A stretch of 64,000 nucleotides of DNA from assembly GCA_038198935.1 (NCBI GenBank), contig JBBPZQ010000103.1:25649-89648 (forward strand), in the 5' to 3' direction. The stretch's first letter is position 1. Each line of letters opens with the position of its first letter. The stretch comes from Anaerolineae bacterium (GTDB taxonomy: Bacteria; Chloroflexota; Anaerolineae; JACRMK01). The notes under the pieces were generated by a model. That model ran no database searches. It was not told the origin of the DNA and saw only the letters and a program-made list of their open reading frames with translations. The position numbers and the translations under genes were made by a program. This document shows, piece by piece, positions 45,948 through 59,584 of this stretch.

Positions 45948-45965
45948 GAACTGACTCCAAACAAT

Positions 45966-46036
45966 AGTCCTGAGTGCTGAGTGCGGAGTCCTGAGTATAC
46001 AATTCACCCAGCACTCAGCACTCCGCACTCAGGACT
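45966..46036. repeat. palindrome with AGTCCTGAG/GTGCTGAG/GTGCGGAG repeat arms (paralog of 43108..43162)
   Basis: agtcctgagtgctgagtgcggagtcctgag...cagcactcagcactccgcactcaggact. Confidence 0.65.
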
Positions 46037-46039
46037 GAT

Positions 46040-46756
46040 TTACGCTCGTTTCCAAAACGCCAGCCGCGCGCGCGGCGCGTTGGCAGTCTGTGCTTCACGC
46101 GCCGTGATGGTGGGAATCGAGCCGATGACGGGCAAGCCTGTGTAGCGTTCCACGTCCTCGCTGGAACGCACGACATCCGACTCCAGCCATTCGAGCGCGA
46201 ACACGACGACGACGCCGAGCAGTGCGCCGAGCACGCCGCCCGCCAGCATATTGATGCTCGTCTTCGGCGAGAACACTTCGGGTGCGCTGGCGTTGTCAAT
46301 GATGGTCGTGAGGATGCGGTCGCGCTGATCAATTTCCAGATTCTCGAGCTGCCGCTGCTGCACGAATAATTCTGCAAACGTCTGCGCGACACGCTGCGCC
46401 GTTGCGCCGTCGCGATGTTTGGCGTCCACCTGAATCGTGAGGTCTGCTTCGTCCGACGTGAAATTCACCATGCCCAGCACGGCTTCGGATCGCATATCCA
46501 ATTGAAGTTTAGTGTTGACCTTCTGCGCCATCGTGAGCGAACTGAGTTTCTTCGTGTAACTGCGCAGGATGTTCTTGATGGTGAGCGTCTGACCGTAGTC
46601 GGGGCGTGCGGGCTCATTGTTCAGCGTGATGATGGAGCGGTAGATGGTCGGCTGCGTCTTGCTGAAGACGTAGGCACTGGCGACGGCGATCACGGCGACG
46701 AGCGCGATGATCCACCAGCGTTTGCGCAAAATTTTTAGATAGTCCCGCAAGTCCAT
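46040..46756 (-). CDS. Wzz/chain-length-determinant (polysaccharide copolymerase) domain protein
   Basis: MDLRDYLKILRKRWWIIALVAV N-terminal TM helix, C-terminal TM helix and GLP motif. Confidence 0.7.
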   Translation of the reverse strand: MDLRDYLKILRKRWWIIALVAVIAVASAYVFSKTQPTIYRSIITLNNEPARPDYGQTLTIKNILRSYTKKLSSLTMAQKVNTKLQLDMRSEAVLGMVNFTSDEADLTIQVDAKHRDGATAQRVAQTFAELFVQQRQLENLEIDQRDRILTTIIDNASAPEVFSPKTSINMLAGGVLGALLGVVVVFALEWLESDVVRSSEDVERYTGLPVIGSIPTITAREAQTANAPRARLAFWKRA

Positions 46757-48790: not shown

Positions 48791-48895
48791 CAGGTGTCAA
48801 GTGTCACATGTCACGTCTGTGATCATTCACACATGACACATGACACATGGCACGTGACACTTGGCGCTTCCCGCTCCACACCTGTCACTTGTCTC
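48791..48895. repeat. palindrome with GTGTCA/TGACAC repeat arms upstream of the glycosyltransferase / downstream of arcC
   Basis: caggtgtcaagtgtcacatgtcacgtctgtgat...acatgacacatgacacatggcacgtgacacttg...cacctgtcacttgtc. Confidence 0.6.
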
Positions 48896-49829
48896 CTATG
48901 ATTCTTGTGCCCGTCTCGCCGCGCAGGGCGCGCGCGATGTTCTCGGGGTTCGTGATGATGGCTTCCTGTCCGCCGTTCACGATGAAGCGCACGCAGGCCT
49001 CGATCTTCGGACCCATGCTGCCCGCGGGGAACTGTCCTGCGGCGAGGAACCGCTGCGCATCGGCAACGCTGAGTTGCGCGAGCGGCTGCGGATTAGGGTT
49101 TTTGTAATTGAGCATGACCTGCTCGACGGCGGTGGAGATCAGGAACAGGTCGGCGTGAATCGAACTGGCAAGCAATGACGATGCGTAATCTTTATCAATC
49201 ACCGCTTCGACGCCGTGCAGCAGCCCATGCTCGTCGCGCACGACGGGGATGCCGCCGCCACCGACCGCGATCACGATGAAGCCGTCGCCAATCAATCGCT
49301 TGATCACGTCCACTTCGACAATCGCTTGCGGCTGTGGCGACGGCACGACACGCCGCCAGCCGCGCCCCGCGTCCTCGACCATCGCCCAGCCGCGCGTCTG
49401 CATGTGCTCGCGCGCCTTCGCGTCGTCGTAGAACGAGCCGATCGGCTTGCTCGGTTTTTGAAACGCCGGGTCGTCACGATCCACCAGCACCTGCGTGACG
49501 ACGGTCGCCGCCTGTCGCGCGATGCCTCGCTGCTGAAACTCGTTCTGCAAGCATTGCTGGATCATGTAGCCGAGCGCGCCCTGTGTGTCCGCGCCGCACG
49601 AATCGAGCGGGACGGTGTGCAGCACGTGCACCGACAAATCCGAGCGCAGCAAGATGAAGCCAACTTGGGGCCCGTTGCCGTGCGTCACGACGAGGTTCCA
49701 ACCGTCCTGCACCATCGCCGCGAGGTGCTTCGCGGTCTCGCGCGTGGCCGCGAACTGGTCGGGCACGCTCTGATGATGCGGATCGCTGATGAGGCTATTG
49801 CCGCCAATGGCGACGACGGCGGTGGGCAA
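48885..49829 (-). CDS. arcC: carbamate kinase
   Basis: 314 aa; VVAIGGN, THGNGPQVG motifs. Apparent TTG start. Confidence 0.85.
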   Translation of the reverse strand: MPTAVVAIGGNSLISDPHHQSVPDQFAATRETAKHLAAMVQDGWNLVVTHGNGPQVGFILLRSDLSVHVLHTVPLDSCGADTQGALGYMIQQCLQNEFQQRGIARQAATVVTQVLVDRDDPAFQKPSKPIGSFYDDAKAREHMQTRGWAMVEDAGRGWRRVVPSPQPQAIVEVDVIKRLIGDGFIVIAVGGGGIPVVRDEHGLLHGVEAVIDKDYASSLLASSIHADLFLISTAVEQVMLNYKNPNPQPLAQLSVADAQRFLAAGQFPAGSMGPKIEACVRFIVNGGQEAIITNPENIARALRGETGTRIIGDK

Positions 49830-49941
49830 TTGACATCTCCATCATCGGATGTTATATTGTGTTCGAGCGGTCTCGTAAGTCCTGGTGTCACTGGCTCCAC
49901 ATTTGGGAGTCCCACTCCGTCCAAACGGTCTTCAGTGATCG

Positions 49942-50581
49942 TCACTGGTCACGGTGGTCATCGGTGCCTAGGGTGAGCCGCTTTTTCTTTTTGGTGCTCA
50001 AATCGTCGAAGTGGATGATCTTCGAGCGGATGATGTTGTAGTACTCGCTGTGATGATGACGATAGTGCTGCATCACAGCCCAAGCCACGAAGTCGGGCGC
50101 GATCATCTCAGGCATTGTCTGTGAGTCGGTCTGATGCAGACGGACGATGTTGCCAGCAACGCCCGCAATCGCCTCGCGTAACCCCAGCCTCCAAGTCCGC
50201 TTGTTGTCTCTTGTTGGTGTGACGTTTGTCAATAAACAGGTCTATGCGAATGTGTCGCCTCACTGCTTGAAGCGCACAACCCTCAATCAATTCTTGGTAA
50301 AGTCTTTCGTAATCCTCAAGCGCATTTCCTCTATTACGCCAGATTGCAACATCAATCGAGATAACCGGATCGTCAGCAAGCGCATTCAGAACCTTTCGCA
50401 ATGTGCGCGGCGGTGAAACGGACGCTTTCAACTCGGAACGCGCTTTCAATTTCAGGACACGCCTCAAGCGTCGCATCGCCAATTCTAGATGGCGGCGATT
50501 CGTCGTGACGACCGAGACGACGGCGACGAAGTGGTCGTCGCTAGTTGCGTACAAGGACTCGTCAACGAAGGCTGCAATCAC
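49942..50581 (-). pseudogene. DUF3800-family gene disrupted by a frameshift
   Basis: The N-terminal part (MIAAFVDESLYAT..., GTG start at 50581) is in the 50108..50581 frame; a plausible C-terminal continuation is in the 49942..50232 frame. Confidence 0.45.
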
Positions 50582-50639
50582 TAGAGCATCCGTGCTGCAA
50601 TGTCATATGGACGACGCAGTGTCTTAAGAGAGCACTCAC

Positions 50640-50686
50640 TGGATTGCCGCTAATGGCGACGAAGGCGGTGGGCAATAGACACCCAC
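50640..50686 (-). pseudogene. degenerate duplicate of the arcC 5' end (encodes LPTAFVAISGNP)
   Basis: About 45 bp with 41 identities to 49793..49838 (LPTAVVAIGGNS). Confidence 0.55.
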
Positions 50687-50694
50687 CTGGTTTT

Positions 50695-53361
50695 TCAAAG
50701 CAATGCTGGTTGTGCAATCACCACCACATCGGCAAATTCGGTTGCTTGCAGTGCTTCGTATTCTGCTTGCTTGACCTTGATGTACTTCCATTCCGTGCCC
50801 GTCAGCCGCGTGGCGTTCTCCGCCCAGAGCGTGGCCGCGCGGTCTTTGTTTGCCACGTCCACATCCTCACGCCCTTTGGTCTCTATCAGGTAATTCGTAC
50901 CCTGTTCGGCCACAGCCACGAAGTCAGGCTCATAGTAGCGCAAGTTGTTGTTGGCGTCGGTGTATTCGATGGCGAAGCCAAATTGCTCAGGCAGCTTGGC
51001 GAAGGCCGCAACGTCGGGCGCGTTGTGCAGGAACTTGGCGAATGATTTTTCAAACTCGTTGCCACACGGCACGAGGTTGAACACGCACTTGCGCGAGTCG
51101 AACGTCGGGCGTGAATACGGAAACGGCGGCGTCACCGATAGTTTCCGACCCGCATCCAAGAGTTGCGGTTGCAGTTCTTGCACGACGAGCGGACGCAGCA
51201 CACGCACAAACTCTCGCACCGTGACGAACTGAACCACTTCGGAACTGATGGCTTTGATGAGCGCGGGGTCGTCCAAGTTGACGCGCTCACCAAAGGCGTA
51301 CACCTCCAAGAACTCGCGGACTTTCGGCACGAGCGCGGCGAACTGCGACGGCAGTTTTACATCTTGTGCGATGCGCTTGGCGTAGTAGGAGATGACCTCT
51401 TGCGAAGTTTGTACGTCGGGCAGTTTGTAGTCGCGCTCGACAATCTTTTGCAGCGTGATGAAGTCGTAGCCTTCATAGTGGAACTGCTGAATATCCGCCT
51501 GCTCGGACTTGCGCGGCAGCTTGGGTGCGCGTATCGCGGACACGTCTAGCGCGACAATCTCGTCGGCTAAGGTGCGCTTGCGCGTCAGTATCGGGCTGAG
51601 GACGGGCAGCGCGATGTCTTTGTCTAGCTTGTCTGGGTCGGGCGCGATGGTGACGATGGTGAGTTTGTCTTTGCCGACTTCAAATGTGTCTAATTTGATG
51701 TCCTCGTCTTTTTCGAGTTGCTCGACAAACTCGATGAATGCCTTATTGCCGATGACGTCCACGCGCTCGGTGTAGGCTGTAGCGAAGCCGCGAAACATGA
51801 GCCGCAAGCCGCGCCCGATGGTTTGTTCGGGCAAGATGTTGGCCTTCGATGAGTAAGGTCGCAAACCCACCACCACTGTTACGTTCTGCACGTCCCAGCC
51901 TTCGCGCAGCATCAACACGCTGACAATCGCATTGATGGGACTGTGCAGGTCGTCCACTTCGCGGGCGACGGTGCGCGCTTTGTCGAGGTCGCGCTTCGAC
52001 ACTTCGCCTTTGCGGTCGGTGTGGATGACGAGCAATTGGTCGCCGCCGAACTCGGATGGGTACTTGGTGCGCAGGTAGTCGCCCACGTCCTCGGCTTCGT
52101 CGGTGGTGTTCATCATCACGAACAACAGCGGCTTGCGCTTGAGTTGTGCGAGTTGTTCGCGGTATTCGCGCCAGCGTTCCACGCCTGCCGTGAGGTATGC
52201 CTTGTATTTGGTGCTCGTAACAGACGAAGGAGTTTCACGGATGCCCGTCGTGATGCCTTTCGTTGGACGCTTGACGATGCCATCAATAATGGCTTGCTTG
52301 AGCGGGTAATCGTAAATCGTCCAGGTGAACAGGCTGCCCATGCTGTAACGCGGCGTGGCGGAGAAGTCGAGTTGGGCAGCGACCCCCACCCCAACCCTCC
52401 CCCGTTCGCCAACTGCGCGAACAGGGGAGGGAGTTTGCTCCCCTTCCCCTGTCCGTGCTTTTTCGGACGGGGGAAGGGGTAGGGGGATGGGGGTCAGGCT
52501 CGCGTGCAACTGGCGGATACTCTTGTTCCATTCGCTTTCTTCGTCGTGGGTGTGGTGCGCCTCGTCGTTGACGACCAACAATCGCCCGCCGCGTTTGATG
52601 ATGCGCGTATCGAAGTCCGCAATCTCCATTGGTTGTGCGGGCGGCTTCGCGCCAAGCACCGCCGTCATGATGTCGGGTTCGTCGCCGTCGCCGTTGTCTC
52701 GTTCGTAAAATTGTTGGATGTTGGTCAGGTATAACGCGCCGAGCGAGTGTGCGCGTTCGCCATCGCCGCGCATGTAGCAATCGAAGTCCCAGTGGATTTT
52801 CAGTTCGGGCGGGATGAGCGGGTCAACCTTGAAGATTCTGCCGCTGGCAAAATCGGCCTTCAATCGCTCGAAGACAATCACGTTGGGAGCGATGACGAGA
52901 AACGTCGTGGCGTAATCGTCGGCATTTTCCAACACGGCATTGAAGTATTGCCACACGATCGCCAGCGACATGATTTTCGTTTTGCCGCTGCCCGTCGCCA
53001 TCTTGATGCAGTAGCGCGCGAACTCGTCGTATTGCAAGAGCCGCAAGTCTTTGTTCGAGCCTGCGTATTGCTCGACCAAATCCTTGTGACGGCGCACGCG
53101 CGCGACTTCGTACAGATAAATCAGCGTCTCGATGGCGAACTTCTGCGAGTCGTGATAGGTGAAGGCGCGGCCATTGGGCAGGCGATGGTCGGTCTTGAAC
53201 CAATGATTGAGCAGGGCGCGTGTCGTCGCGGTGACGCCTTTGTACTTGTCAGCGCGCCAGGCGTCAACGGCTTTGCGGATGGCGGGCACGCACGGCGCGG
53301 TCTTGAGGCGTGGCTCCAGTAGCGAGAGTTGGCTATCAGGTTTGCGAGCGCGGCGGGGCAT
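50695..53361 (-). CDS. res: Type III restriction enzyme Res subunit (helicase-like)
   Basis: 888 aa; helicase motif I TGSGKT, motif II VVNDEAHH, Type III Res C-terminal region. Contains an in-frame GC-rich palindromic insert. Confidence 0.85.
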   Translation of the reverse strand: MPRRARKPDSQLSLLEPRLKTAPCVPAIRKAVDAWRADKYKGVTATTRALLNHWFKTDHRLPNGRAFTYHDSQKFAIETLIYLYEVARVRRHKDLVEQYAGSNKDLRLLQYDEFARYCIKMATGSGKTKIMSLAIVWQYFNAVLENADDYATTFLVIAPNVIVFERLKADFASGRIFKVDPLIPPELKIHWDFDCYMRGDGERAHSLGALYLTNIQQFYERDNGDGDEPDIMTAVLGAKPPAQPMEIADFDTRIIKRGGRLLVVNDEAHHTHDEESEWNKSIRQLHASLTPIPLPLPPSEKARTGEGEQTPSPVRAVGERGRVGVGVAAQLDFSATPRYSMGSLFTWTIYDYPLKQAIIDGIVKRPTKGITTGIRETPSSVTSTKYKAYLTAGVERWREYREQLAQLKRKPLLFVMMNTTDEAEDVGDYLRTKYPSEFGGDQLLVIHTDRKGEVSKRDLDKARTVAREVDDLHSPINAIVSVLMLREGWDVQNVTVVVGLRPYSSKANILPEQTIGRGLRLMFRGFATAYTERVDVIGNKAFIEFVEQLEKDEDIKLDTFEVGKDKLTIVTIAPDPDKLDKDIALPVLSPILTRKRTLADEIVALDVSAIRAPKLPRKSEQADIQQFHYEGYDFITLQKIVERDYKLPDVQTSQEVISYYAKRIAQDVKLPSQFAALVPKVREFLEVYAFGERVNLDDPALIKAISSEVVQFVTVREFVRVLRPLVVQELQPQLLDAGRKLSVTPPFPYSRPTFDSRKCVFNLVPCGNEFEKSFAKFLHNAPDVAAFAKLPEQFGFAIEYTDANNNLRYYEPDFVAVAEQGTNYLIETKGREDVDVANKDRAATLWAENATRLTGTEWKYIKVKQAEYEALQATEFADVVVIAQPALL
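52381..52495. repeat. GC-rich nested palindromic element inserted in-frame in res
   Basis: gacccccaccccaaccctcccccg...ggggtagggggatgggggtc outer arms plus two inner hairpins; encodes ...PLPLPPSEKARTGEGEQTPSPVRAVGERGRVGVGV.... Confidence 0.7.
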
Positions 53362-53433
53362 AAAATTTTCTTACCTTGTTATTGACATACCCAAACGATG
53401 TGACTATACTGTGCCTGCAAACAAAAGTATTGC

Positions 53434-53715
53434 AGCCAGTCGCTTGTAGGTGAACGCCGGCTCCAAAGTCCCAGCACTGCTCAGTGCAGGGATGCCGTGC
53501 GCTGGGTAAACCAGCCTAGCCTACAGGGGGCTGGCGGCGATAGATGCGCCACCGACCACCGAAACCCGTACCGAGTGTATGGTGAACCTTCCGTCGGAAG
53601 GAGTTAGGGGGCAGGGCGTGTCCACTGTGTTGGAATAGCCAGTCGGCTGTAGGTGAAAGTCGGCTTCATGCCGTGCGCTCGACATCCGAGCCTAGCCTAC
53701 AGAGGGCTGGCTTTT
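53434..53715 (+). repeat. two tandem structured repeat units (GCCAGTCGSYTGTAGGTGAA...GCCTAGCCTACAGRGGGCTGG), the second ending in hairpin + TTTTTC
   Basis: Unit 1 about 53434..53545, unit 2 about 53640..53715; long-range CTGTAGG/CCTACAG and GCCAG/CTGGC pairing. Confidence 0.5.
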
Positions 53716-54479
53716 TCTATGTCAAACGGATTGTCGCGGCTATACCAGTTCTTCGGATACATGGCGCTGTCATAGCGGTCCACCAGTAAACTTACTTTGT
53801 CCTCGACGTAGCGATAGTAACGCATCTCCCTCCTCACAAAAGCGCGATAGACTGCCCAGTTCATGTAATCAATCACTTGCAGACACGGCTCGCCTACCGC
53901 ATTCTGAGGTAAGACGACAATCTCTGTTTCCACCTTGGTCTCCCAACGGGTTTCAAAATTGGCGACGCCGCGTTGAATCGCTTGCTCCAATTGGGCTTGA
54001 CGCTTGCGCGAGCCACGTTGGGCAAAGTAGATCAGATTGCGCGCATAGCGATGCAAGACATTCTCGAAAAGCAAACTGATCAAGTAATCATAGAACGTGC
54101 TTTCATTAGCATGAAACGAATTGCGAAAAACGCGCTCAACTTTGCGCGCAACGACGAACTGGGCTTTGAAATCCTGCGCGCGCAACATTTTGAACACGGC
54201 CTGGCGAACTTCGGGCGTATCATCCTTCGCATGAAACGCTGCGTATGTTTTGCCGATGGAAGGAATATCTCGCAAATACTCGTCGGCGGCAAGCTCGGCG
54301 TGCAATTCCGCCAGCGCGCGGCGAATCGGGCTCGCGTCGCTCGTCTCGATGAATCCCAAAATCAATATAGGCGAGCAGCCCTCCTGCCCGACAATCAGGT
54401 TGCCGTGGCGGTCGTAGAACGTCGGGTCGCCTGACTCGTCCACAAAATACCAACACGACCCCTCTGCCGCTTCCTTCAT
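53697..54479 (-). CDS. DUF3800-family protein
   Basis: 260 aa; N-terminal [12 protein letters not shown] motif typical of DUF3800; start overlaps the mod stop by 4 nt. Confidence 0.6.
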
Positions 54480-56584
54480 TCGTCCACCTTCACCCGCACC
54501 GTCTTCGTCGTGTCGTTCCCCAGAATGTCAATCACCTTGACGACAATCGTGTACTCGCCCGCCGCGTCGTAGCTGTGCGTCGTCGTCTTCTGCAAGTCGC
54601 GGTCTTTGCGCGTGCGATAGGTCTGCCATTCGTTGTGGAACGTGTCGCCCTTGTTGTCCCAATCCACCGCCCAATAGTCAATCCACTGCGACCAATGCTT
54701 GATGGCGCGCTGCACGTCGGCGGGCACGTCGTCGGGCGGGGTGACGAAATCGGTTAGGGTGAGAGTGACCGTGCGCGTAGAGACGGCTCGCCGAGCCGTC
54801 TCTACCTTCACATCCACCGCGAGCGCGGCGAGTTCAAAAAATTTGATGTCGCCTTGCTCGACGGCCTTCTTCTCCAACACTTCGCGCGGGATACGCACGA
54901 AGCGCACGGTGAGGTTGGCGAGCGCGGCTTGCTGCTTGGCGACTTCGTTCAATTCGAAGGCGAAGTCCCAACCGAGCACGTCCACGCCATTCGTCGTGGG
55001 CGCATCCGCGCCGGTGCCGACCGCGCGCTTGAACTCGGTGACGATATTGGTCACGTCGCCGACCGCGATGGGCGCGTCCACCACGCCGACATGCACCATG
55101 CGCCCCGCCTTCAAACCGTGCAGCCATGTGTAGCCCGTGATGGGGCGCGCGTTGTACAGTTTGAGAATGAAGTCGGTGTAAGCGCGATGCACGGCGTGGA
55201 GCTCTCCCTCACCCCTAACCCCTCTCCCGCTGGGCGAGGGGGACGCACTGCTCCCTTCTCCCTGCGGGAGAAGGGCTGGGGATGAGGGAGAGCTGCCGAA
55301 TTCATCCTTTACCCACAACTGCCGCTCGTACTTGCCCAAGTTTTGCACGACGAACGGGCGCACGTTGTCAATCGAGAGCAGACGCTTGCGCGTGGTGTGG
55401 ATGGCGAAGCGCCCCAGGTCGCAGGTAATCCAACGGCGGTTCAACTTCTCCGCGACGGCGGCGGTCGTGCCGCTGCCGCAGAAGCAATCGAGCACGAGGT
55501 CGCCTTCGTTCGATGACGCTTTGAGGATGCGTTCGAGTAAGGCTTCGGGTTTTTGTGTGGGGTAATCCACTCGTTCTAAAGCAGTCGGTGACAAAATGGG
55601 AATATCCATCCAAAGAGTGGACGCCGAAACTCCAGGTCTCTCGTCGAGATAGTATTTGATATAAGGTTGTCCTGGGCCGCTGAAATACAGTTTTCCAGTC
55701 TTATACATTTCTTCCATTTTGTCTCTTGTATAAGCCCAATAACGACCTTCTGGCGGGTAAACGCCATGAAACTCATATCGCGTATCGCCACCAGGTTTTG
55801 CAGCGGTGGGAGTTACAAGTCTGTATCGCCTGCCTTGCTCATCAATCTTGTTATACTGTTGTGCAATCTGCTGGTCGCTAAATGGAACGTACTGAGTTCG
55901 CCACTGAAAGTTTTGTGATTTCACGTAGAAAAAAATAGTGTCGTGCACCACATCATAGTGACGAGCGCCCTGTTTAGTATCGCCGTGTGCAGTAGTTCTT
56001 TTCCAAACGACCTCGTTCACAAAATTCTGTAAGCCAAACACCTCATCCATTACAGCCTTTGCATAGTGTGACACATGGTAATCTAAATGCACATAGATAC
56101 TCCCATCCTCCGTCAGCAACTCGCGCAACAACACGACCGTCTCGTAAAACCATTGCAAGTACGAATCGAGCCCGCGGCCCCACGTATCGCGGTAGGCTTT
56201 CATCTCGATGACGCTTGGCTCTTTGGTGAAGGATTCGATGTCGTCGGACTCTCCCTCACCCCCGTCCCCTCTCCCGCTGGGCGAGGGGGGCACGGTCGCC
56301 GTGAACGAAAAGTCCGCGCCGACGTTGAACGGCGGGTCAATGTAAATCAAGTTCACCTTGCCCGCGAACTCGTCGAGCAGCGACGGCAGCACATATTTCT
56401 TGTCGCCCCAAATCAAGCGGTTGCGCCATTCGGAATCGCGTCCCGCGCTGAACATATCGAGCGCGCGCTGGCGTTGCTGCGCGGACTCGTTCACCGTCTC
56501 GACAGTCTGAAACGGCAGCGCCACGCGCAACGGGGCGACGCGCTTGCCGTCTTTGTATTTGCCATCCCACATCAGTTCGGTCAT
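54476..56584 (-). CDS. mod: Type III restriction-modification methyltransferase Mod subunit (N6-adenine)
   Basis: 702 aa; IYIDPPF motif [13 protein letters not shown] motif I, Type III target-recognition domain between them. Carries two in-frame GC-rich inserts. Confidence 0.85.
55199..55295. repeat. GC-rich nested palindromic element inserted in-frame in mod
   Basis: gagctctccctcacccc...ggggatgagggagagctg outer arms; inner CCCTTCTCCC-TGC-GGGAGAAGGG hairpin. Confidence 0.7.
56248..56290. repeat. half copy of the GC-rich element in mod
   Basis: actctccctcacccccgtcccctctcccgctgggcgagggggg: left outer arm and first inner hairpin only. Confidence 0.55.
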
Positions 56585-56666: not shown

Positions 56667-56852
<186 letters not shown>

Positions 56853-57098
56853 TCACGCAGCCATCTGCTCCAAGCGCACCGCAGGCCTGTCGGCATGCGT
56901 CGGTAAGCGCAGTGCGTTGGCGGGCAGCGTTACGACGGCAACCGTGTTGCCGAGCATGTCAAAGAATTCGACACTGTAGCCTGTCTCGCGTGCAGCGACA
57001 TTGTGACGCTCGACCACCGTTCCGACATCGCCAACGCGCAAGTGGTATTCGGGGACATCAAGCACGAGCACGACATCACTATAGAATTGAAAGTCCAA
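56853..57098 (-). CDS. small DUF4926-like protein
   Basis: 81 aa (MDFQFYSDVVLVLDVPEYHLRVGDVGTVVE...); lies exactly between the arcB stop and the arcB 3' fragment. Confidence 0.5.
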   Translation of the reverse strand: MDFQFYSDVVLVLDVPEYHLRVGDVGTVVERHNVAARETGYSVEFFDMLGNTVAVVTLPANALRLPTHADRPAVRLEQMAA

Positions 57099-57099
57099 T

Positions 57100-58071
57100 T
57101 TACTTCTTTGCCTTGCGCCTCACTGCCTTCTTCTCACTCGCCAACTTCACGCCCCCCAGCAGCCACGCGAGGATCGCTTTCTGCGCGTGCAGGCGGTTCT
57201 CGGCTTGGTCGAACACAATCGAGTTGGGCGAGTCGGCCACCGCGTCGGTGATCTCTTCGCCGCGATGGGCGGGCAGGCAGTGCATGATGAGCGCGCGTGA
57301 CGGCGCACTCTGCATCAGCGTCGCATTCAATTGATAATCTTTGAACGCCTTGCGTCGCACCTCGTTCTCCGCTTCTTGGCCCATACTCGTCCACACGTCG
57401 GTATAGACGACATCGGCATTGCGCAGCGCGTCGTGCGGGTCGGTTGTCCAGCGCACACGCGCGCCGCTGTCTTCGGAAAATTCCATCGCGCGCGCCATCA
57501 CCTCTTTGCTCGGCTTGTATGCTTCGGGTGTCGCGACGGTGATGTGCAGTCCGACTTTGCTCGCGCCGAACAGCAAGCCGTTCGCCATGTTGTAGCCATC
57601 GCCGATGAACACGAGTTGTTTGTCGCGCACATCTTTGCCGAGCTGCTCGCGGATGGTGAGCAGGTCTGCCATTACCTGACACGGATGATCGTAATCGCTT
57701 AAGCCATTGATGACCGGCACGCTCGCGTACTGCGCCATCGTTTCCAGATCGCGGTGTCGGAACACGCGCGCCATGATGCCCTGCGTGTAGCGGCTGAGCA
57801 CGCGCGCAATGTCGGGCACAGACTCGCGCTTGCCCATGCCGATCTCCGCGTCGGACAAATACAGTCCGCGCCCGCCGAGCTGATCCATGCCGACCTCGAA
57901 CGAGACGCGCGTGCGCAGCGACGGCTTCTGAAAATACAGCGCGAGCGTTTGTCCCGCGAGAATCGGTTTGTTACCGGCGCGCTTCCATTCGCGCTTCAAC
58001 TTTTCCGCGAGCTGCAGCAGGCCTTCGATTTCAGCAGGTGTGAGATCGGCGAGCGTGAGCAAGTGACGCAT
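57100..58071 (-). CDS. arcB: ornithine carbamoyltransferase
   Basis: Start MRHLLTLADL with AAGGAG RBS; STRTR, HCLP, DVVYTDVWTSMG motifs. Confidence 0.9.
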   Translation of the reverse strand: MRHLLTLADLTPAEIEGLLQLAEKLKREWKRAGNKPILAGQTLALYFQKPSLRTRVSFEVGMDQLGGRGLYLSDAEIGMGKRESVPDIARVLSRYTQGIMARVFRHRDLETMAQYASVPVINGLSDYDHPCQVMADLLTIREQLGKDVRDKQLVFIGDGYNMANGLLFGASKVGLHITVATPEAYKPSKEVMARAMEFSEDSGARVRWTTDPHDALRNADVVYTDVWTSMGQEAENEVRRKAFKDYQLNATLMQSAPSRALIMHCLPAHRGEEITDAVADSPNSIVFDQAENRLHAQKAILAWLLGGVKLASEKKAVRRKAKK

Positions 58072-58150
58072 AGGACTCCTTCGGAGAGACGGCGGACGAC
58101 GGACGGCAGACGGCTGATGTCTTGCCTCCATCGTCCGCCGTCTGCCGTCG

Positions 58151-59584
58151 TCAGTAGGCACCATCCGCGAGCAGCACGCTCGGAACGGTGCGCAGCATGA
58201 TTTTCAGATCGAGCGCGAGCGACCAGTTCTCGATGTAGAACAAGTCGAGCATGACCATCTCGTCGAACGTGAGCAGCGAGCGCCCGCTCACTTGCCACAA
58301 GCCGCTCATGCCCGGCGCGACTTCGAGCCGCTTCTTGTGCCACTCTTCGTATTGCGCGACTTCGCGCGGCAAGGGCGGACGCGGACCGACCAAACTCATT
58401 TCGCCGCGCAGCACGTTGAGCACCTGCGGCAGTTCGTCGAGCGAGGTGCGGCGGAAGAAGCGGCCCATGCGCGTCAGGCGCGGATCGTTTTTGATCTTGA
58501 ACAGGGGCCCCGTCGCTTCGTTCATCTCCAACAATTTTTCCACTTCCTCGTCCGCGCCCTCGCGCATCGAGCGGAACTTGAAGCAGGTGAACAGTTTACC
58601 GCCGCGTCCCACGCGTGTCTGTCGGAACAGAATGGGACCGGGCGAATCGAGTTTAAGCGCGACGGCAAACGGCAAAAATATCAGGGGCCCAAAAATCGCC
58701 AACACGATCACGCTGAGCACGATATCAATCGCGCGCTTGAGCGCGTAGTTCCAACCGCTGATGCTCACGTCGCGCACGCTGATCAGCGGGATGCCGTTGA
58801 TGTCGTCCACCGCGACGCGGCTGAGCGACATTTCGTACAGGTCGGGCACGATCTTCACGCGCGCGCCGTGCCGCTCGCATTCGTCCAGCATCGCCAAGAC
58901 TTGTTGATGGTGATCGGCCGGCAAGGCGATCACCACTTCGTCGGGCTGATGCGCGTGCAGCACCTCGCGCAAGTGCCGCGTGTCGCCGAGCGCGGGGAAG
59001 CGGCCGATGTTCACTTGCTGCGTCGGGTCGTCGTCGAGGAAGCCGATCACGCGATAGCCGAGTTCGGGCCGCGCGACGATGCTGCGCATCAACGTGCGAC
59101 TGCGCTCGCCCGCGCCGATGATCAGCAGCCGATCAACGGCGATGCCGCGCTTGCGCAAGCGCGCCAGCACGACGCCGAGCACGAGGCGGAACAGCGCGAG
59201 CGTAGCCACGATGAACGCGAGCGCGAACGCGAACATCAAGCGCGAGTACGAATACGGACGCAGATAGAAGAACACGACGATCATTGCCGCGACGCCGACC
59301 AGCGTGCCGTTGAAGATGGTCACGGTGCGGTCGAGCCACGATGCGCCGCGCTGCGAGGTATAGACGCCTTCGACCTTGTAAATGACGAGCAGCGTCGCGG
59401 TGAGGAAAACGGCGATGGGCACGTACTCGCCAAACGGGACGAAGTTGAATTCGTCCACAGGGCGAACCCACTCGCCGATGTAGCGCGCCCAGTACGCCAG
59501 CGCGAAGCCGACGTTAATCAGCAGCGCGTCAGCAATGACGAGCGCGAGCGATTGGTAGCGGTGGAGTCGTGCGAGCATGGTCAT
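58151..59584 (-). CDS. exopolysaccharide polyprenyl-phosphate glycosyl-1-phosphate transferase (WbaP/EpsB-type bacterial sugar transferase)
   Basis: 477 aa; 4-5 N-terminal TM helices, C-terminal sugar-transferase domain (KRAIDIVLS...PGP(I/L)F.Q.RVG..G..F...KFR(S/T)M). Confidence 0.85.
   Translation of the reverse strand: MTMLARLHRYQSLALVIADALLINVGFALAYWARYIGEWVRPVDEFNFVPFGEYVPIAVFLTATLLVIYKVEGVYTSQRGASWLDRTVTIFNGTLVGVAAMIVVFFYLRPYSYSRLMFAFALAFIVATLALFRLVLGVVLARLRKRGIAVDRLLIIGAGERSRTLMRSIVARPELGYRVIGFLDDDPTQQVNIGRFPALGDTRHLREVLHAHQPDEVVIALPADHHQQVLAMLDECERHGARVKIVPDLYEMSLSRVAVDDINGIPLISVRDVSISGWNYALKRAIDIVLSVIVLAIFGPLIFLPFAVALKLDSPGPILFRQTRVGRGGKLFTCFKFRSMREGADEEVEKLLEMNEATGPLFKIKNDPRLTRMGRFFRRTSLDELPQVLNVLRGEMSLVGPRPPLPREVAQYEEWHKKRLEVAPGMSGLWQVSGRSLLTFDEMVMLDLFYIENWSLALDLKIMLRTVPSVLLADGAY

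Follow-up and report, generated by a model that had tools for sequence, protein, structure and literature searches.

The window, i.e., the whole stretch of 64,000 nucleotides analysed here, contains an island of ~7 kb flanked by argF and argB, in which mod, DUF3800-A, res, and a frameshifted DUF3800-B are arranged in this order on the minus strand. The mod gene (54476-56584, minus strand) encodes a Type III-like N6/N4 DNA methyltransferase of 702 aa (PF01555, 1.6e-44; PADLOC MTase_III, 2.4e-110) with two low-complexity insertions, both in frame, and its orthologues in surveyed loci L010, L020, and L082-L150 showed 51-88% identity. The res gene (50695-53361, minus strand) encodes a Type III-like restriction subunit of 888 aa, an SF2 helicase with a C-terminal endonuclease domain (ResIII and RE_endonuc; PF04851, 1.7e-13; PF19778, 8.2e-6), which generated a hit on PADLOC REase_III (3.2e-26) and matched the NCBIfam BPTD_3080 family in part. 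With high confidence, the island combines a Type III-like mod-res operon with two unrelated cargo cassettes of one kind, each pairing an RNase H2-like DUF3800 protein with a convergent structured RNA of ~85-120 nt.

DUF3800-A (53697-54479, minus strand) encodes a nuclease-like protein of 260 aa with an RNase H2/HII-like fold. As the first-pass annotation had stated, this DUF3800 protein with its flagged motif is encoded between mod and res and overlaps the mod stop, the TGA of mod and the ATG of DUF3800-A sharing ATGA at 54476-54479. The product matched PF12686 (29.4 bits, cut-off 21) and PADLOC DUF3800_VII, the retron-VII effector model (3e-24), and its best fold matches were RNase HII/H2/H3, not RuvC or PIWI. 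Residues D14-E15 and D204 never vary, and Q201 hardly does; copies of DUF3800-A occur in many phyla at 50-79% identity. The copy in the window is nearer to copies without R-M neighbours (74% to L002, 72% to L003) than to the R-M-embedded copies in L010 (70%) and L020 (67%). The cassette forms a sharply bounded unit of ~0.95 kb, from start codon to -35 box, in very short spacers. The gap between DUF3800-A and res is 335 nt and no promoter for res was found, so transcription of res has to pass a promoter that opposes it as well as two structured units; as a side effect, res output relative to mod output is probably reduced here.

The two structured units lie antisense behind DUF3800-A. Unit 1 (53632-53717, plus strand) covers the last seven codons of the gene and folds into a three-way junction of a P1-P2 stem and two hairpins, with a U-run at its end; a terminator-like site at 53692-53710 is followed by CTTTTTCTAT. 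Its score with covariance model R1 was 91.9 bits on the antisense strand vs 12.8 bits on the sense strand. Unit 2 (53429-53541, plus strand) is a tandem duplicate with an added 28-nt hairpin in the P4 loop and without the U-tail, and scored 61.5 bits (E 2.9e-16) with R1, which was built without it. The two units correspond to direct repeats D1/D2, and both were recovered in the MFE fold of 53418-53725 (z -5.3). A sigma-70-like promoter (53382-53410, plus strand; TTGACA-17-TATACT, 11/12 match), convergent with DUF3800-A, reads into unit 2 and then unit 1. Promoters and terminators here and below are predictions from matches to consensus.

Of 80 genome loci, 79 have the ~85-nt RNA motif behind DUF3800-A, as do four metagenome loci, antisense every time. 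It is present as a single copy per locus across the survey, against two tandem units in the window, and no orphan copy was found in the 1.7 Mb searched. As no family in Rfam 15 matches it, the RNA appears to be a further class of DUF3800 RNA, set apart by comparison with Rfam 15 families only. In an alignment of 77 sequences, covariation was strong: 94.3% of cells were paired and both sides had changed in 17 of 26 pairs; none of 500 shuffles reached the observed pairing, and slid controls gave 30-51%. The strand is indicated by G-U cells (229 antisense vs 28 sense), including a U12-G81 pair present in 68 of the 77 sequences, which would be C-A if read in the sense direction. An antisense promoter matching at least 10/12 positions was present in 48/81 loci vs 5/81 on the control strand, at a fixed distance from the RNA in most loci. 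The P3 loop contains UAA in many members.

DUF3800-B (49942-50581, minus strand) is a small DUF3800 paralogue, 26% identical to DUF3800-A, which is split by a 1-nt frameshift at GGGG (50182-50185) into two ORFs, 50108-50581 (N-terminal half; PF12686, 21.1 bits) and 49942-50232. The repaired product of 212 aa, with an APDFVAWAV motif in its C-terminal half, aligned gap-free across the junction with 11 intact homologues (172-206 aa, mostly 195-206); the frameshift may be biological or an assembly error. Convergent with this gene and overlapping its 3′ end is a DUF3800-III RNA (Rfam RF02962; 49864-49984, plus strand; 55.8 bits vs a gathering score of 43.8, E 4e-11) followed by a U-run, the sole Rfam family at or above gathering score in the window. 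Its sigma-70-like promoter (49830-49858, plus strand; TTGACA-17-TATATT with a TG extension, 11/12) abuts the argB start codon. Relatives of DUF3800-B in L152 and L153 show the same RNA arrangement with an equivalent promoter upstream of the RNA; in L152 the RNA adjoins the coding sequence without overlap, so not every such RNA is antisense to part of the coding region. Both RNAs of the window, neither of which was in the first-pass annotation, start nearly at their own closing stem and end in a U-run complementary to the C-terminal Lys codons of DUF3800. The only two promoter matches at 11/12 on the plus strand of 49700-54600 lie one ahead of each RNA.

Between res and the DUF3800-B cassette lies an orphan copy of the argB 5′ end (50643-50681). 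This direct repeat of 39 nt matches 49797-49835 at 92% identity and encodes LPTAFVAISGN where the N-terminus of argB reads LPTAVVAIGGN. DUF3800-B is thus located between this duplicate and the real argB, parted from res, and represents an independent insertion; as judged from these junctions, DUF3800-B and its DUF3800-III RNA are shown to have entered at the argB 5′ end with a 39-nt flanking duplication. The second, frameshifted DUF3800 gene previously noted after res is therefore present and split at GGGG, but does not belong to the R-M operon. The neighbouring DUF4926 cassette has a duplication too, of 143 nt from the argF 3′ end.

The spacer between mod and res was compared in 52 full-length orthologous operons, window included. 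The spacer was empty in 34/52, mod abutting res, in agreement with the earlier statement that mod-res is the canonical order. Five spacers (one of them in the window) contained DUF3800-A, and the other 13 contained an IS200 transposase, ORF6N, NYN, a protease, GC-rich repeats, or unexamined sequence. The mod-res spacer is thereby shown to be a hot spot that related operons fill with other cargo. In six further loci of this R-M lineage (L010, L020, L087, L090, L132, and L141), DUF3800-A likewise separates mod from res; its start overlaps the mod stop as ATGA or GTGA in the window, L010, L087, L090, and L141, and is adjacent to it in L020. The arrangement shows, on the evidence of sequence, exact entry of DUF3800-A and its RNA into a spacer of ~10 nt, where the ATGA of the cassette supplies mod with its stop. 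The DUF3800-A and Res trees (neighbour-joining, without bootstrap support) were incongruent. In the Res tree, the operons with DUF3800-A all fell into one subclade, which also holds spacer-empty L082 and L083; divergence was similar for DUF3800-A (63-70%) and Res (66-76%).

Of the DUF3800-A copies, ~15-20% reside in unrelated DNA-modification defence operons. The unrelated systems in which methyltransferase and helicase/nuclease genes enclose or adjoin the gene comprise other Type III-like ones (L056, L060, L064, L066), those with an Eco57I-like methyltransferase (L012, L023, L032, L036, the first two with a PLD-SNF2 helicase partner), and one with DUF6079 and a methyltransferase (L022). Upstream neighbours (n=73) included N6_N4_Mtase five times and Eco57I three times, and downstream neighbours (n=74) ResIII five times and OLD/AAA_15 three times; distal ORFs of the same loci gave no comparable signal, the listed families of 81 such ORFs including a single N6_Mtase. 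The neighbourhood survey, set beforehand as the refuting test, therefore fails to refute an association of DUF3800 with R-M genes. As the neighbours of the remaining ~80% of copies are housekeeping or unannotated genes, residence in defence islands is only partial.

Since each DUF3800 gene has its own antisense RNA with promoter and terminator, each cassette is an autonomous module. Our favoured explanation, in which the DUF3800 genes are self-contained nuclease and antisense RNA cassettes carried as cargo in or beside R-M genes and most likely have an RNA-restrained function resembling toxin-antitoxin or abortive-infection systems, is held as a whole, function included, at slightly under even confidence. 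The mechanism is proposed a shade more cautiously still. DUF3800 would be a toxic nuclease effector restrained by its cognate RNA, both through cis-antisense pairing with the 3′ end of the mRNA and, judging from conserved loops and junctions, by protein binding. If the labile RNA were lost, as upon phage-induced transcription shut-off, the nuclease would be freed, with abortive infection or post-segregational addiction as the outcome. Nesting in modification-dependent defence operons would then provide co-expression, through translational coupling to mod, and co-transfer, rather than reflect an obligatory subunit role. Occasional DUF3800 genes are inactive with the RNA kept (DUF3800-B in the window, frameshifted L040, truncated L062), which is consistent with toxicity. 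The literature searched held no function for DUF3800 proteins with an RNA partner, and no experiment demonstrating their toxicity, RNA binding, or defence.

Alternatively, the cassettes may be purely selfish, a homing- or transposase-like DNA nuclease copying them into spacers, with the RNA serving mobility or self-regulation and without host benefit. The patchy distribution, the sharp bounds of the unit, the incongruent phylogeny, the spread over many phyla, and the duplication of a target gene end around DUF3800-B, as also around the nearby DUF4926 cassette, would fit such elements. However, terminal inverted repeats, conserved ends, and short target-site duplications are all missing, each locus has one copy without orphan RNA copies elsewhere, and phages, plasmids, and viral contigs have virtually none, while the flanking repeats are long and imperfect (88-92% identity), more like homeologous recombination than transposition. 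We consider this reading unlikely.

Functional coupling of DUF3800-A to Type III R-M, as a PrrC-like abortive-infection nuclease held by Mod/Res and set free upon inhibition of the R-M by phage, or as a regulator or accessory nuclease of restriction, is more doubtful still. In its favour, the gene starts over or right against the mod stop in each of the six embedded loci compared, several unrelated systems also have the module between their methyltransferase and nuclease/helicase genes, and the Res-like divergence of DUF3800-A within one Res subclade makes long retention possible. Against this, most orthologous spacers are empty, including L082 and L083 of that same subclade, or hold unrelated cargo, the majority of DUF3800-A genes have no R-M neighbour, the copy in the window is nearer to non-R-M copies, and a regulatory RNA comes with the module. 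The repeated association with R-M noted in the first-pass annotation thus extends to six other loci of the lineage and to unrelated systems, but the third functional component of R-M that had been suggested from it is not supported, given the empty and otherwise filled spacers, the housekeeping or unannotated neighbours of ~80% of copies, the incongruent trees, the RNA that each gene brings along, and the position of DUF3800-B outside the operon.

An RNA-guided nuclease like Argonaute, TnpB, or IscB, with the structured RNA as guide or scaffold, is very improbable: a dedicated RNA over the gene 3′ end recalls omega and reRNAs, and other DUF3800 proteins associate with Cas12a2/a3 (PMC10910872, PMC13594972), but this RNA lies antisense, the predicted transcript begins just a few nt before P1 and stops at the U-tail after it, with no room for a variable guide segment, and the fold is RNase HII/H2/H3-like. 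That the element behind DUF3800-A merely forms a 3′ UTR structure or terminator on the sense strand, as part of the DUF3800 mRNA, can hardly be entertained, as its long stem right after the stop codon and the U-rich sequence that follows in the sense direction in some loci are outweighed by the G-U asymmetry, the conserved antisense promoter, the U-run after the stem in the antisense direction only, and the covariance model scores.

The RNA-restrained nuclease cassette favoured here fits neither the type I nor the type III toxin-antitoxin class. Type I toxins are small peptides, and in type III the antitoxin RNA is repeated in tandem ahead of the toxin gene. As in bsrG/SR4 (type I), a convergent cis-antisense small RNA lies over the 3′ end of the putative toxin mRNA, though the product here would be an RNase H-like enzyme of 260 aa where type I has a small membrane peptide. 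As in ToxIN (type III), the RNA is structured and probably binds a nuclease, and the two tandem units of the window recall repeated ToxI-type antitoxins, whereas the RNA is normally single-copy, downstream, and antisense. PrrC/EcoprrI, an abortive-infection anticodon nuclease gene embedded in a Type I R-M operon, likewise has a nuclease gene nested among and co-transcribed with R-M genes, but here an RNase H fold is combined with Type III, embedding is facultative within the R-M lineage, and the site also takes other cargo.

Weinberg et al. (2017) described 11 RNA motifs, DUF3800-I to -XI, associated with DUF3800 genes, several of them in Rfam (RF02962, RF02968, RF02969, and others) (PMC5737381). 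These also place a structured RNA beside a DUF3800 gene, often followed by an intrinsic terminator, in several phyla; DUF3800-B partners a bona fide DUF3800-III RNA, and the UAA loops noted there are often matched by the P3 loop of the new motif. The fixed convergent antisense layout with its own promoter, seen here in two classes, is absent from the main text of that paper.

Retron type VII combines a reverse transcriptase (RT) with an RNase H2-like DUF3800 effector (Mestre et al. 2020, PMC7736814). DUF3800-A resembles this effector in its PADLOC match, RNase H2-like fold, N-terminal D-E motif, and structured nucleic-acid partner. The logic proposed here is also alike, the retron effector being held by an RT-msDNA complex, although no RT gene was found within the island, nor as a recurrent neighbour of the 80 DUF3800-A orthologues, the RNA is only ~85 nt, and DUF3800-A has a QxxD motif that retron-linked proteins lack. 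DUF3800 RNase H-fold accessory genes also occur at Cas12a2, Cas12a3, and VI-F loci (PMC10910872, PMC12669027, PMC13594972). There too, a DUF3800 nuclease has been recruited beside a nucleic-acid-targeting defence system, but with TPR domains and CRISPR effectors, in contrast to the bare DUF3800 with a private antisense RNA in the present island.

The Type III R-M genes lie on the minus strand in an island between argF (57100-58164) and argB (48885-49829) that comprises mod, DUF3800-A, res, DUF3800-B and a DUF4926 gene. The mod product (54476-56584, minus strand, 702 aa) generated hits on PF01555 (1.6e-44) and PADLOC MTase_III (2.4e-110), and the res product (50695-53361, minus strand, 888 aa) on ResIII and RE_endonuc in Pfam and REase_III in PADLOC (3.2e-26). 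As Mod and Res are encoded in one operon with mod first, the locus was classified as a Type III R-M system based on PADLOC and Pfam. In such systems, Mod is an N6/N4 methyltransferase and Res joins an SF2 helicase to a PD-(D/E)xK-type endonuclease, and ATP-dependent cleavage needs two inversely oriented unmethylated sites. DUF3800-A (53697-54479, minus strand, 260 aa) is located between mod and res; the mod TGA and the DUF3800-A ATG overlap as ATGA, and the spacer between DUF3800-A and res is 335 nt. The frameshifted DUF3800-B (49942-50581, minus strand) is located past res. The first-pass annotation had described these genes correctly in every point, including the ATGA overlap and the frameshift.

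GC-rich palindromic repeats are present in frame in mod (55195-55294 and 56242-56292) and res (52440-52479), where they encode low-complexity loops, including PLPLPPSEKARTGEGEQTPSPV… and two others (13 and 31 letters). The loops are absent from most orthologues, and in the orthologous locus L010 two of the three positions have an insertion. Matches to microRNA families at 55201-55293, 52393-52483 and 45961-46042 were far below gathering scores and correspond to GC-rich palindromic repeats rather than microRNAs; the last of these is a near-perfect hairpin of ~80 nt between ParA/MinD-like and Wzz-like genes, perhaps a further palindromic repeat or else a terminator. The C-terminus of Mod (54476-54590, residues ~654-701) showed weak PKD/Ig-like matches (PF18911, 5e-5, below the gathering score), a feature not usually seen in Type III methyltransferases yet conserved in orthologues. 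The GC content of the island (49500-56500) is 0.51-0.57 versus ~0.60-0.63 in the flanks, and this low GC between argF and argB is consistent with horizontally acquired DNA.

The spacer behind DUF3800-A contains two imperfect direct repeats. An element of ~75-85 nt is conserved behind DUF3800-A orthologues in 80 genome loci from Chloroflexota, Patescibacteria, Bacillota, Acidobacteriota, Planctomycetota, Gammaproteobacteria-labelled MAGs and others, and it starts at the final DUF3800-A codons (E-K-A-S-P-L-stop) in all loci but one divergent locus (L054). The 77 sequences aligned as antisense strands (A2) gave a fold in which a long P1-P2 stem closes a three-way junction with two hairpins. In this alignment 94.3% of cells are paired and both sides changed in 17 of 26 pairs; none of 500 shuffles reached the observed values, and slid controls gave 30-51% pairing. 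The motifs GAAAG, CUAG and CAUG are unpaired and nearly invariant across phyla. G-U cells numbered 229 in the antisense orientation versus 28 in the sense orientation, and one U-G pair, found in 68/77 sequences, corresponds to C-A if the sense strand is read. A promoter (TTGACA-N17-TATAAT) directed from outside toward the element scored at least 10/12 in 48/81 loci versus 5/81 for the control strand, at the same distance in most scoring loci, where the -10 box ends 60-80 nt past the stop codon. The U-run after P1 is the complement of conserved Glu/Lys codons. A sense-strand RNA or 3′ UTR was rejected on the basis of the G-U asymmetry, the antisense promoter, the direction of the U-tail and covariance-model scores.

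Within 49700-54600 of the window, only two plus-strand promoter matches reached 11/12; one (53382-53410) precedes the RNA behind DUF3800-A and the other (49830-49858) precedes the RNA associated with DUF3800-B (see below). A terminator-like site is located at 53692-53710. The covariance model built from the alignment (R1) matched the first of two tandem copies in the window (unit 1, 53632-53717) with 91.9 bits and the second (unit 2, 53429-53541), which was left out of model building, with 61.5 bits (E about 3e-16); the minimum-free-energy fold also recovered both units (z -5.3). As unit 2 lacks a U-tail, the window probably produces a dimeric transcript of ~300 nt. The model also matched each of the four metagenomic loci with DUF3800-A (70-85 bits), and it gave exactly one match per locus in 79 of the 80 genome loci, the window alone having two units. 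R1 detected no orphan RNA copies, and none was present at empty mod-res junctions, as a footprint of loss, in 603 kb. Rfam 15 generated no match in the DUF3800-A/res spacer (53330-53760) at E ≤ 10, nor across 57 kb from 13 orthologous loci at E ≤ 0.1. Set apart from Rfam 15 families by this search, the RNA behind DUF3800-A apparently represents an undescribed class.

DUF3800-B is accompanied by a known RNA. DUF3800-III (RF02962) at 49864-49984 on the plus strand scored 55.8 bits against a gathering score of 43.8, and is the sole Rfam match above gathering score within the 64-kb window. RNA and gene are convergent and overlap at the 3′ end of the gene, and two loci with DUF3800-B homologues (L152 and L153) also match RF02962, with the same promoter-RNA-U-tail order convergent with the gene. 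The island thus carries two autonomous cassettes, each consisting of a DUF3800 gene and an antisense RNA. The DUF3800-B cassette is enclosed by a 39-nt direct repeat (49797-49835 and 50643-50681, 92% identical) that encodes the N-terminus of argB (LPTAVVAIGGN versus LPTAFVAISGN). Judging from this repeat of the argB end on both sides, the cassette was inserted at the 5′ end of argB, outside the R-M operon, and DUF3800-B is a separate insertion. Its homologues occur mostly in non-defence contexts, one adjoining a TGT/DUF87/DUF6884 cluster. A comparable second small cassette was observed at the other end of the island, where the DUF4926 gene (56853-57098, minus strand, 81 aa; PF16277, 7e-18) is flanked on one side by the true 3′ end of argF (57129-57271) and on the other by an orphan copy (56696-56838) that is 88% identical to this end. 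The duplicated host-gene ends suggest homeologous recombination of incoming DNA carrying a fragment of the neighbour gene.

DUF3800 is an RNase H2-like domain known as the effector of type VII retrons (PMC7736814) and as an accessory of Cas12a2, Cas12a3 and VI-F systems (PMC10910872, PMC12669027, PMC13594972), and DUF3800 genes are accompanied by eleven structured RNA motifs whose function is not known (PMC5737381). The DUF3800-A product belongs to PF12686 (29.4 bits, cut-off 21), a family with an RNase H-like fold, and hit DUF3800_VII in PADLOC (3e-24). It contains an N-terminal D-E motif (FVDESGD, with D14-E15 invariant) and a C-terminal QxxD motif (LQVID, with Q201 near-invariant and D204 invariant), and its subfamily has more than 1200 protein homologues in many phyla. 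The N-terminal fragment of DUF3800-B is borderline in PF12686 (21.1 bits, cut-off 21), and the protein generated no match in NCBIfam or PADLOC; it retains FVDES and has APDF, with A replacing Q, as in retron-linked members. The two halves of the gene meet at a GGGG run (50182-50185), and the repaired product of 212 aa aligned without gaps with 11 intact homologues (172-206 aa, mostly 195-206). Second DUF3800 genes were observed in two loci with DUF3800-A, a 24%-identical paralogue 7.5 kb away (L004:1885-2649) and a DUF3800-A-like gene ~0.9 kb downstream that ends at the contig edge (L075:11672-12175). A TATAAT-like box is located ~6-12 nt before the DUF3800-A start in nine stand-alone loci (L013, L015, L016, L018, L053, L067, L068, L071 and L075), which suggests that the mRNA there is leaderless or has a very short leader.

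The first-pass annotation had suggested that DUF3800 is a third functional component of the R-M system, with enrichment of its genes near R-M or defence loci as a check. Neighbours of this kind were found: N6_N4_Mtase (5/73) and Eco57I (3/73) upstream, and ResIII (5/74) and OLD/AAA_15 (3/74) downstream, against one N6_Mtase, among the families listed, in 81 control ORFs 6-9 kb off in the same loci. Only two of the 80 genome loci (L010 and L020) belong to the R-M lineage of the window. In other loci, the cassette is located within Type III-like systems (L056, L060, L064 and L066), Eco57I-like methyltransferase systems (L012, L023, L032 and L036, the first two with a PLD-SNF2 helicase partner) or a DUF6079 and methyltransferase system (L022). 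Other neighbours are housekeeping or unannotated genes, e.g. SHMT-GCV_T, UvrA, GlyRS and ComEC. The association of DUF3800-A with R-M-type defence genes is therefore real but facultative, at ~15-20% of copies.

The mod-res junction was also compared across orthologous operons. A metagenome scan with Res yielded 70 orthologous loci, and 52 operons with a full-length Res match, consisting of metagenome loci, L010, L020 and the window, were classified. In 34/52, mod abuts res and the spacer is empty. DUF3800-A occupies the spacer in 5/52 (the window, L010, L020, L087 and L090), as well as in two partial contigs (L132 and L141), and in L010 the cassette is followed by DUF2442. The remaining 13/52 have other content, including a few short gaps. 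Spacer cargo included an IS200-type Y1 transposase (also in the partial contig L146), ORF6N (L116, L119 and L120), an NYN nuclease (L131), an SDH-type protease (L094), two genes of unknown kind (250-391 aa and 168-190 aa; L122 and partial L147) and GC-rich palindromic repeats (L089, L091, L092 and partial L148). At filled sites, the cassette starts within a few nt of the mod C-terminus, which is conserved (…VKV), and supplies the mod stop through an ATGA or GTGA of its own; it ends with the -35 box directly ahead of the res ribosome-binding site. In neighbour-joining trees without bootstrap, the DUF-carrying operons formed one subclade of Res that also holds two empty operons, and R-M-embedded copies of DUF3800-A were dispersed among non-embedded ones. 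This dispersal indicates repeated gain or cassette exchange, as far as such trees can tell. The mod-res spacer of this Type III lineage is thus a cargo hot spot, reported here for the first time. The third-component claim is only partly supported: R-M-type neighbours do recur, but residence is facultative and most orthologous operons lack the cassette. When R-M systems and defence islands are annotated, small cargo of a defence or selfish type should be expected to land repeatedly in these few nt.

Regarding function, we tentatively consider that the RNA restrains a toxic nuclease, an idea with somewhat less than even chances. DUF3800 would be the nuclease held by the RNA. The conserved loops and junctions GAAAG, CUAG and CAUG are not needed by pure antisense regulators, which argues that a protein recognises them, DUF3800 being the simplest candidate; through the convergent overlap, the mRNA could also be controlled in a type I manner. 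RNA was retained beside inactivated genes in DUF3800-B and in two further loci (L040 and L062), and this, the parallel with type VII retrons and the partial residence in defence operons would fit an abortive-infection or addiction module. It is possible that the cassette is instead a purely selfish mobile element, but it lacks transposon hallmarks, having neither inverted repeats at its ends nor conservation of the sequence upstream, and collections of phages, plasmids and viruses contain essentially none of it; a phage or plasmid origin was rejected, as phages gave no match, plasmids a single weak one and IMG/VR three distant relatives (30-35%). An RNA-guided role for DUF3800 is unlikely, as the transcript, as predicted, lacks a variable segment. 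For the host operon, no sigma-70-like res promoter was found downstream of the cassette, so transcription of res would have to pass the convergent promoter and two structured units, and such read-through probably lowers res relative to mod.

The association of DUF3800 with eleven unrelated RNA partners has been unexplained since 2017, and the domain later emerged as a retron effector and CRISPR accessory (PMC5737381, PMC7736814, PMC10910872). The papers searched on what the DUF3800 RNAs do gave only the original description, Rfam papers and bioinformatics benchmark papers naming the motifs, and no mechanism. While DUF3800 was known as a defence-linked domain of RNase H fold whose genes have RNA partners, the strand, promoter and terminator anatomy common to two RNA classes is new here, as apparently is the class found with this large, highly conserved subfamily. 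The locus and its 80-odd relatives provide a testable anatomy, a promoter- and terminator-bearing antisense RNA with P1 and the U-tail over the final codons, and the added class is strongly covarying and has a ready covariance model. If an RNA-restrained nuclease is correct, it would be a new toxin-antitoxin or abortive-infection architecture. A broader and more doubtful proposal is that stand-alone DUF3800 genes and class-specific antisense RNAs (at least 12 classes) form a widespread two-part immune or addiction system, an RNA-held nuclease nested in defence operons. If so, preferred nests would be Type III R-M and Eco57I-like methyltransferase systems, some with a PLD-SNF2 helicase, and the nuclease could form a second line, triggered by shutdown of those systems or of host transcription. 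It would then be a retron-type effector in which a transcribed RNA replaces the RT-made msDNA.

Among known systems, a type VII retron, as the DUF3800_VII match had suggested, was rejected because the island has no reverse transcriptase; among the 25 families with most members listed for the neighbours of the 80 orthologues, no RVT family appeared. Retron ncRNAs are also far longer than the ~85-nt RNA behind DUF3800-A, and msDNA needs the RT that is absent here. The resemblance to type I toxin-antitoxin systems is by architecture only, namely a convergent promoter and an RNA that covers the final ~20 nt of the coding region, whereas type I toxins are small hydrophobic peptides under ~60 aa and DUF3800-A is a soluble protein of 260 aa that is RNase H-like. 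In type III (ToxIN-like) systems, a tandem-repeat RNA is located upstream of the endoribonuclease that processes it, unlike the DUF3800-A RNA, which is downstream, antisense and single copy in 79/80 loci. The ToxIN RNA binds and inhibits its toxin, and a similar interaction with DUF3800-A may be suggested only by the invariant unpaired GAAAG, CUAG and CAUG motifs.
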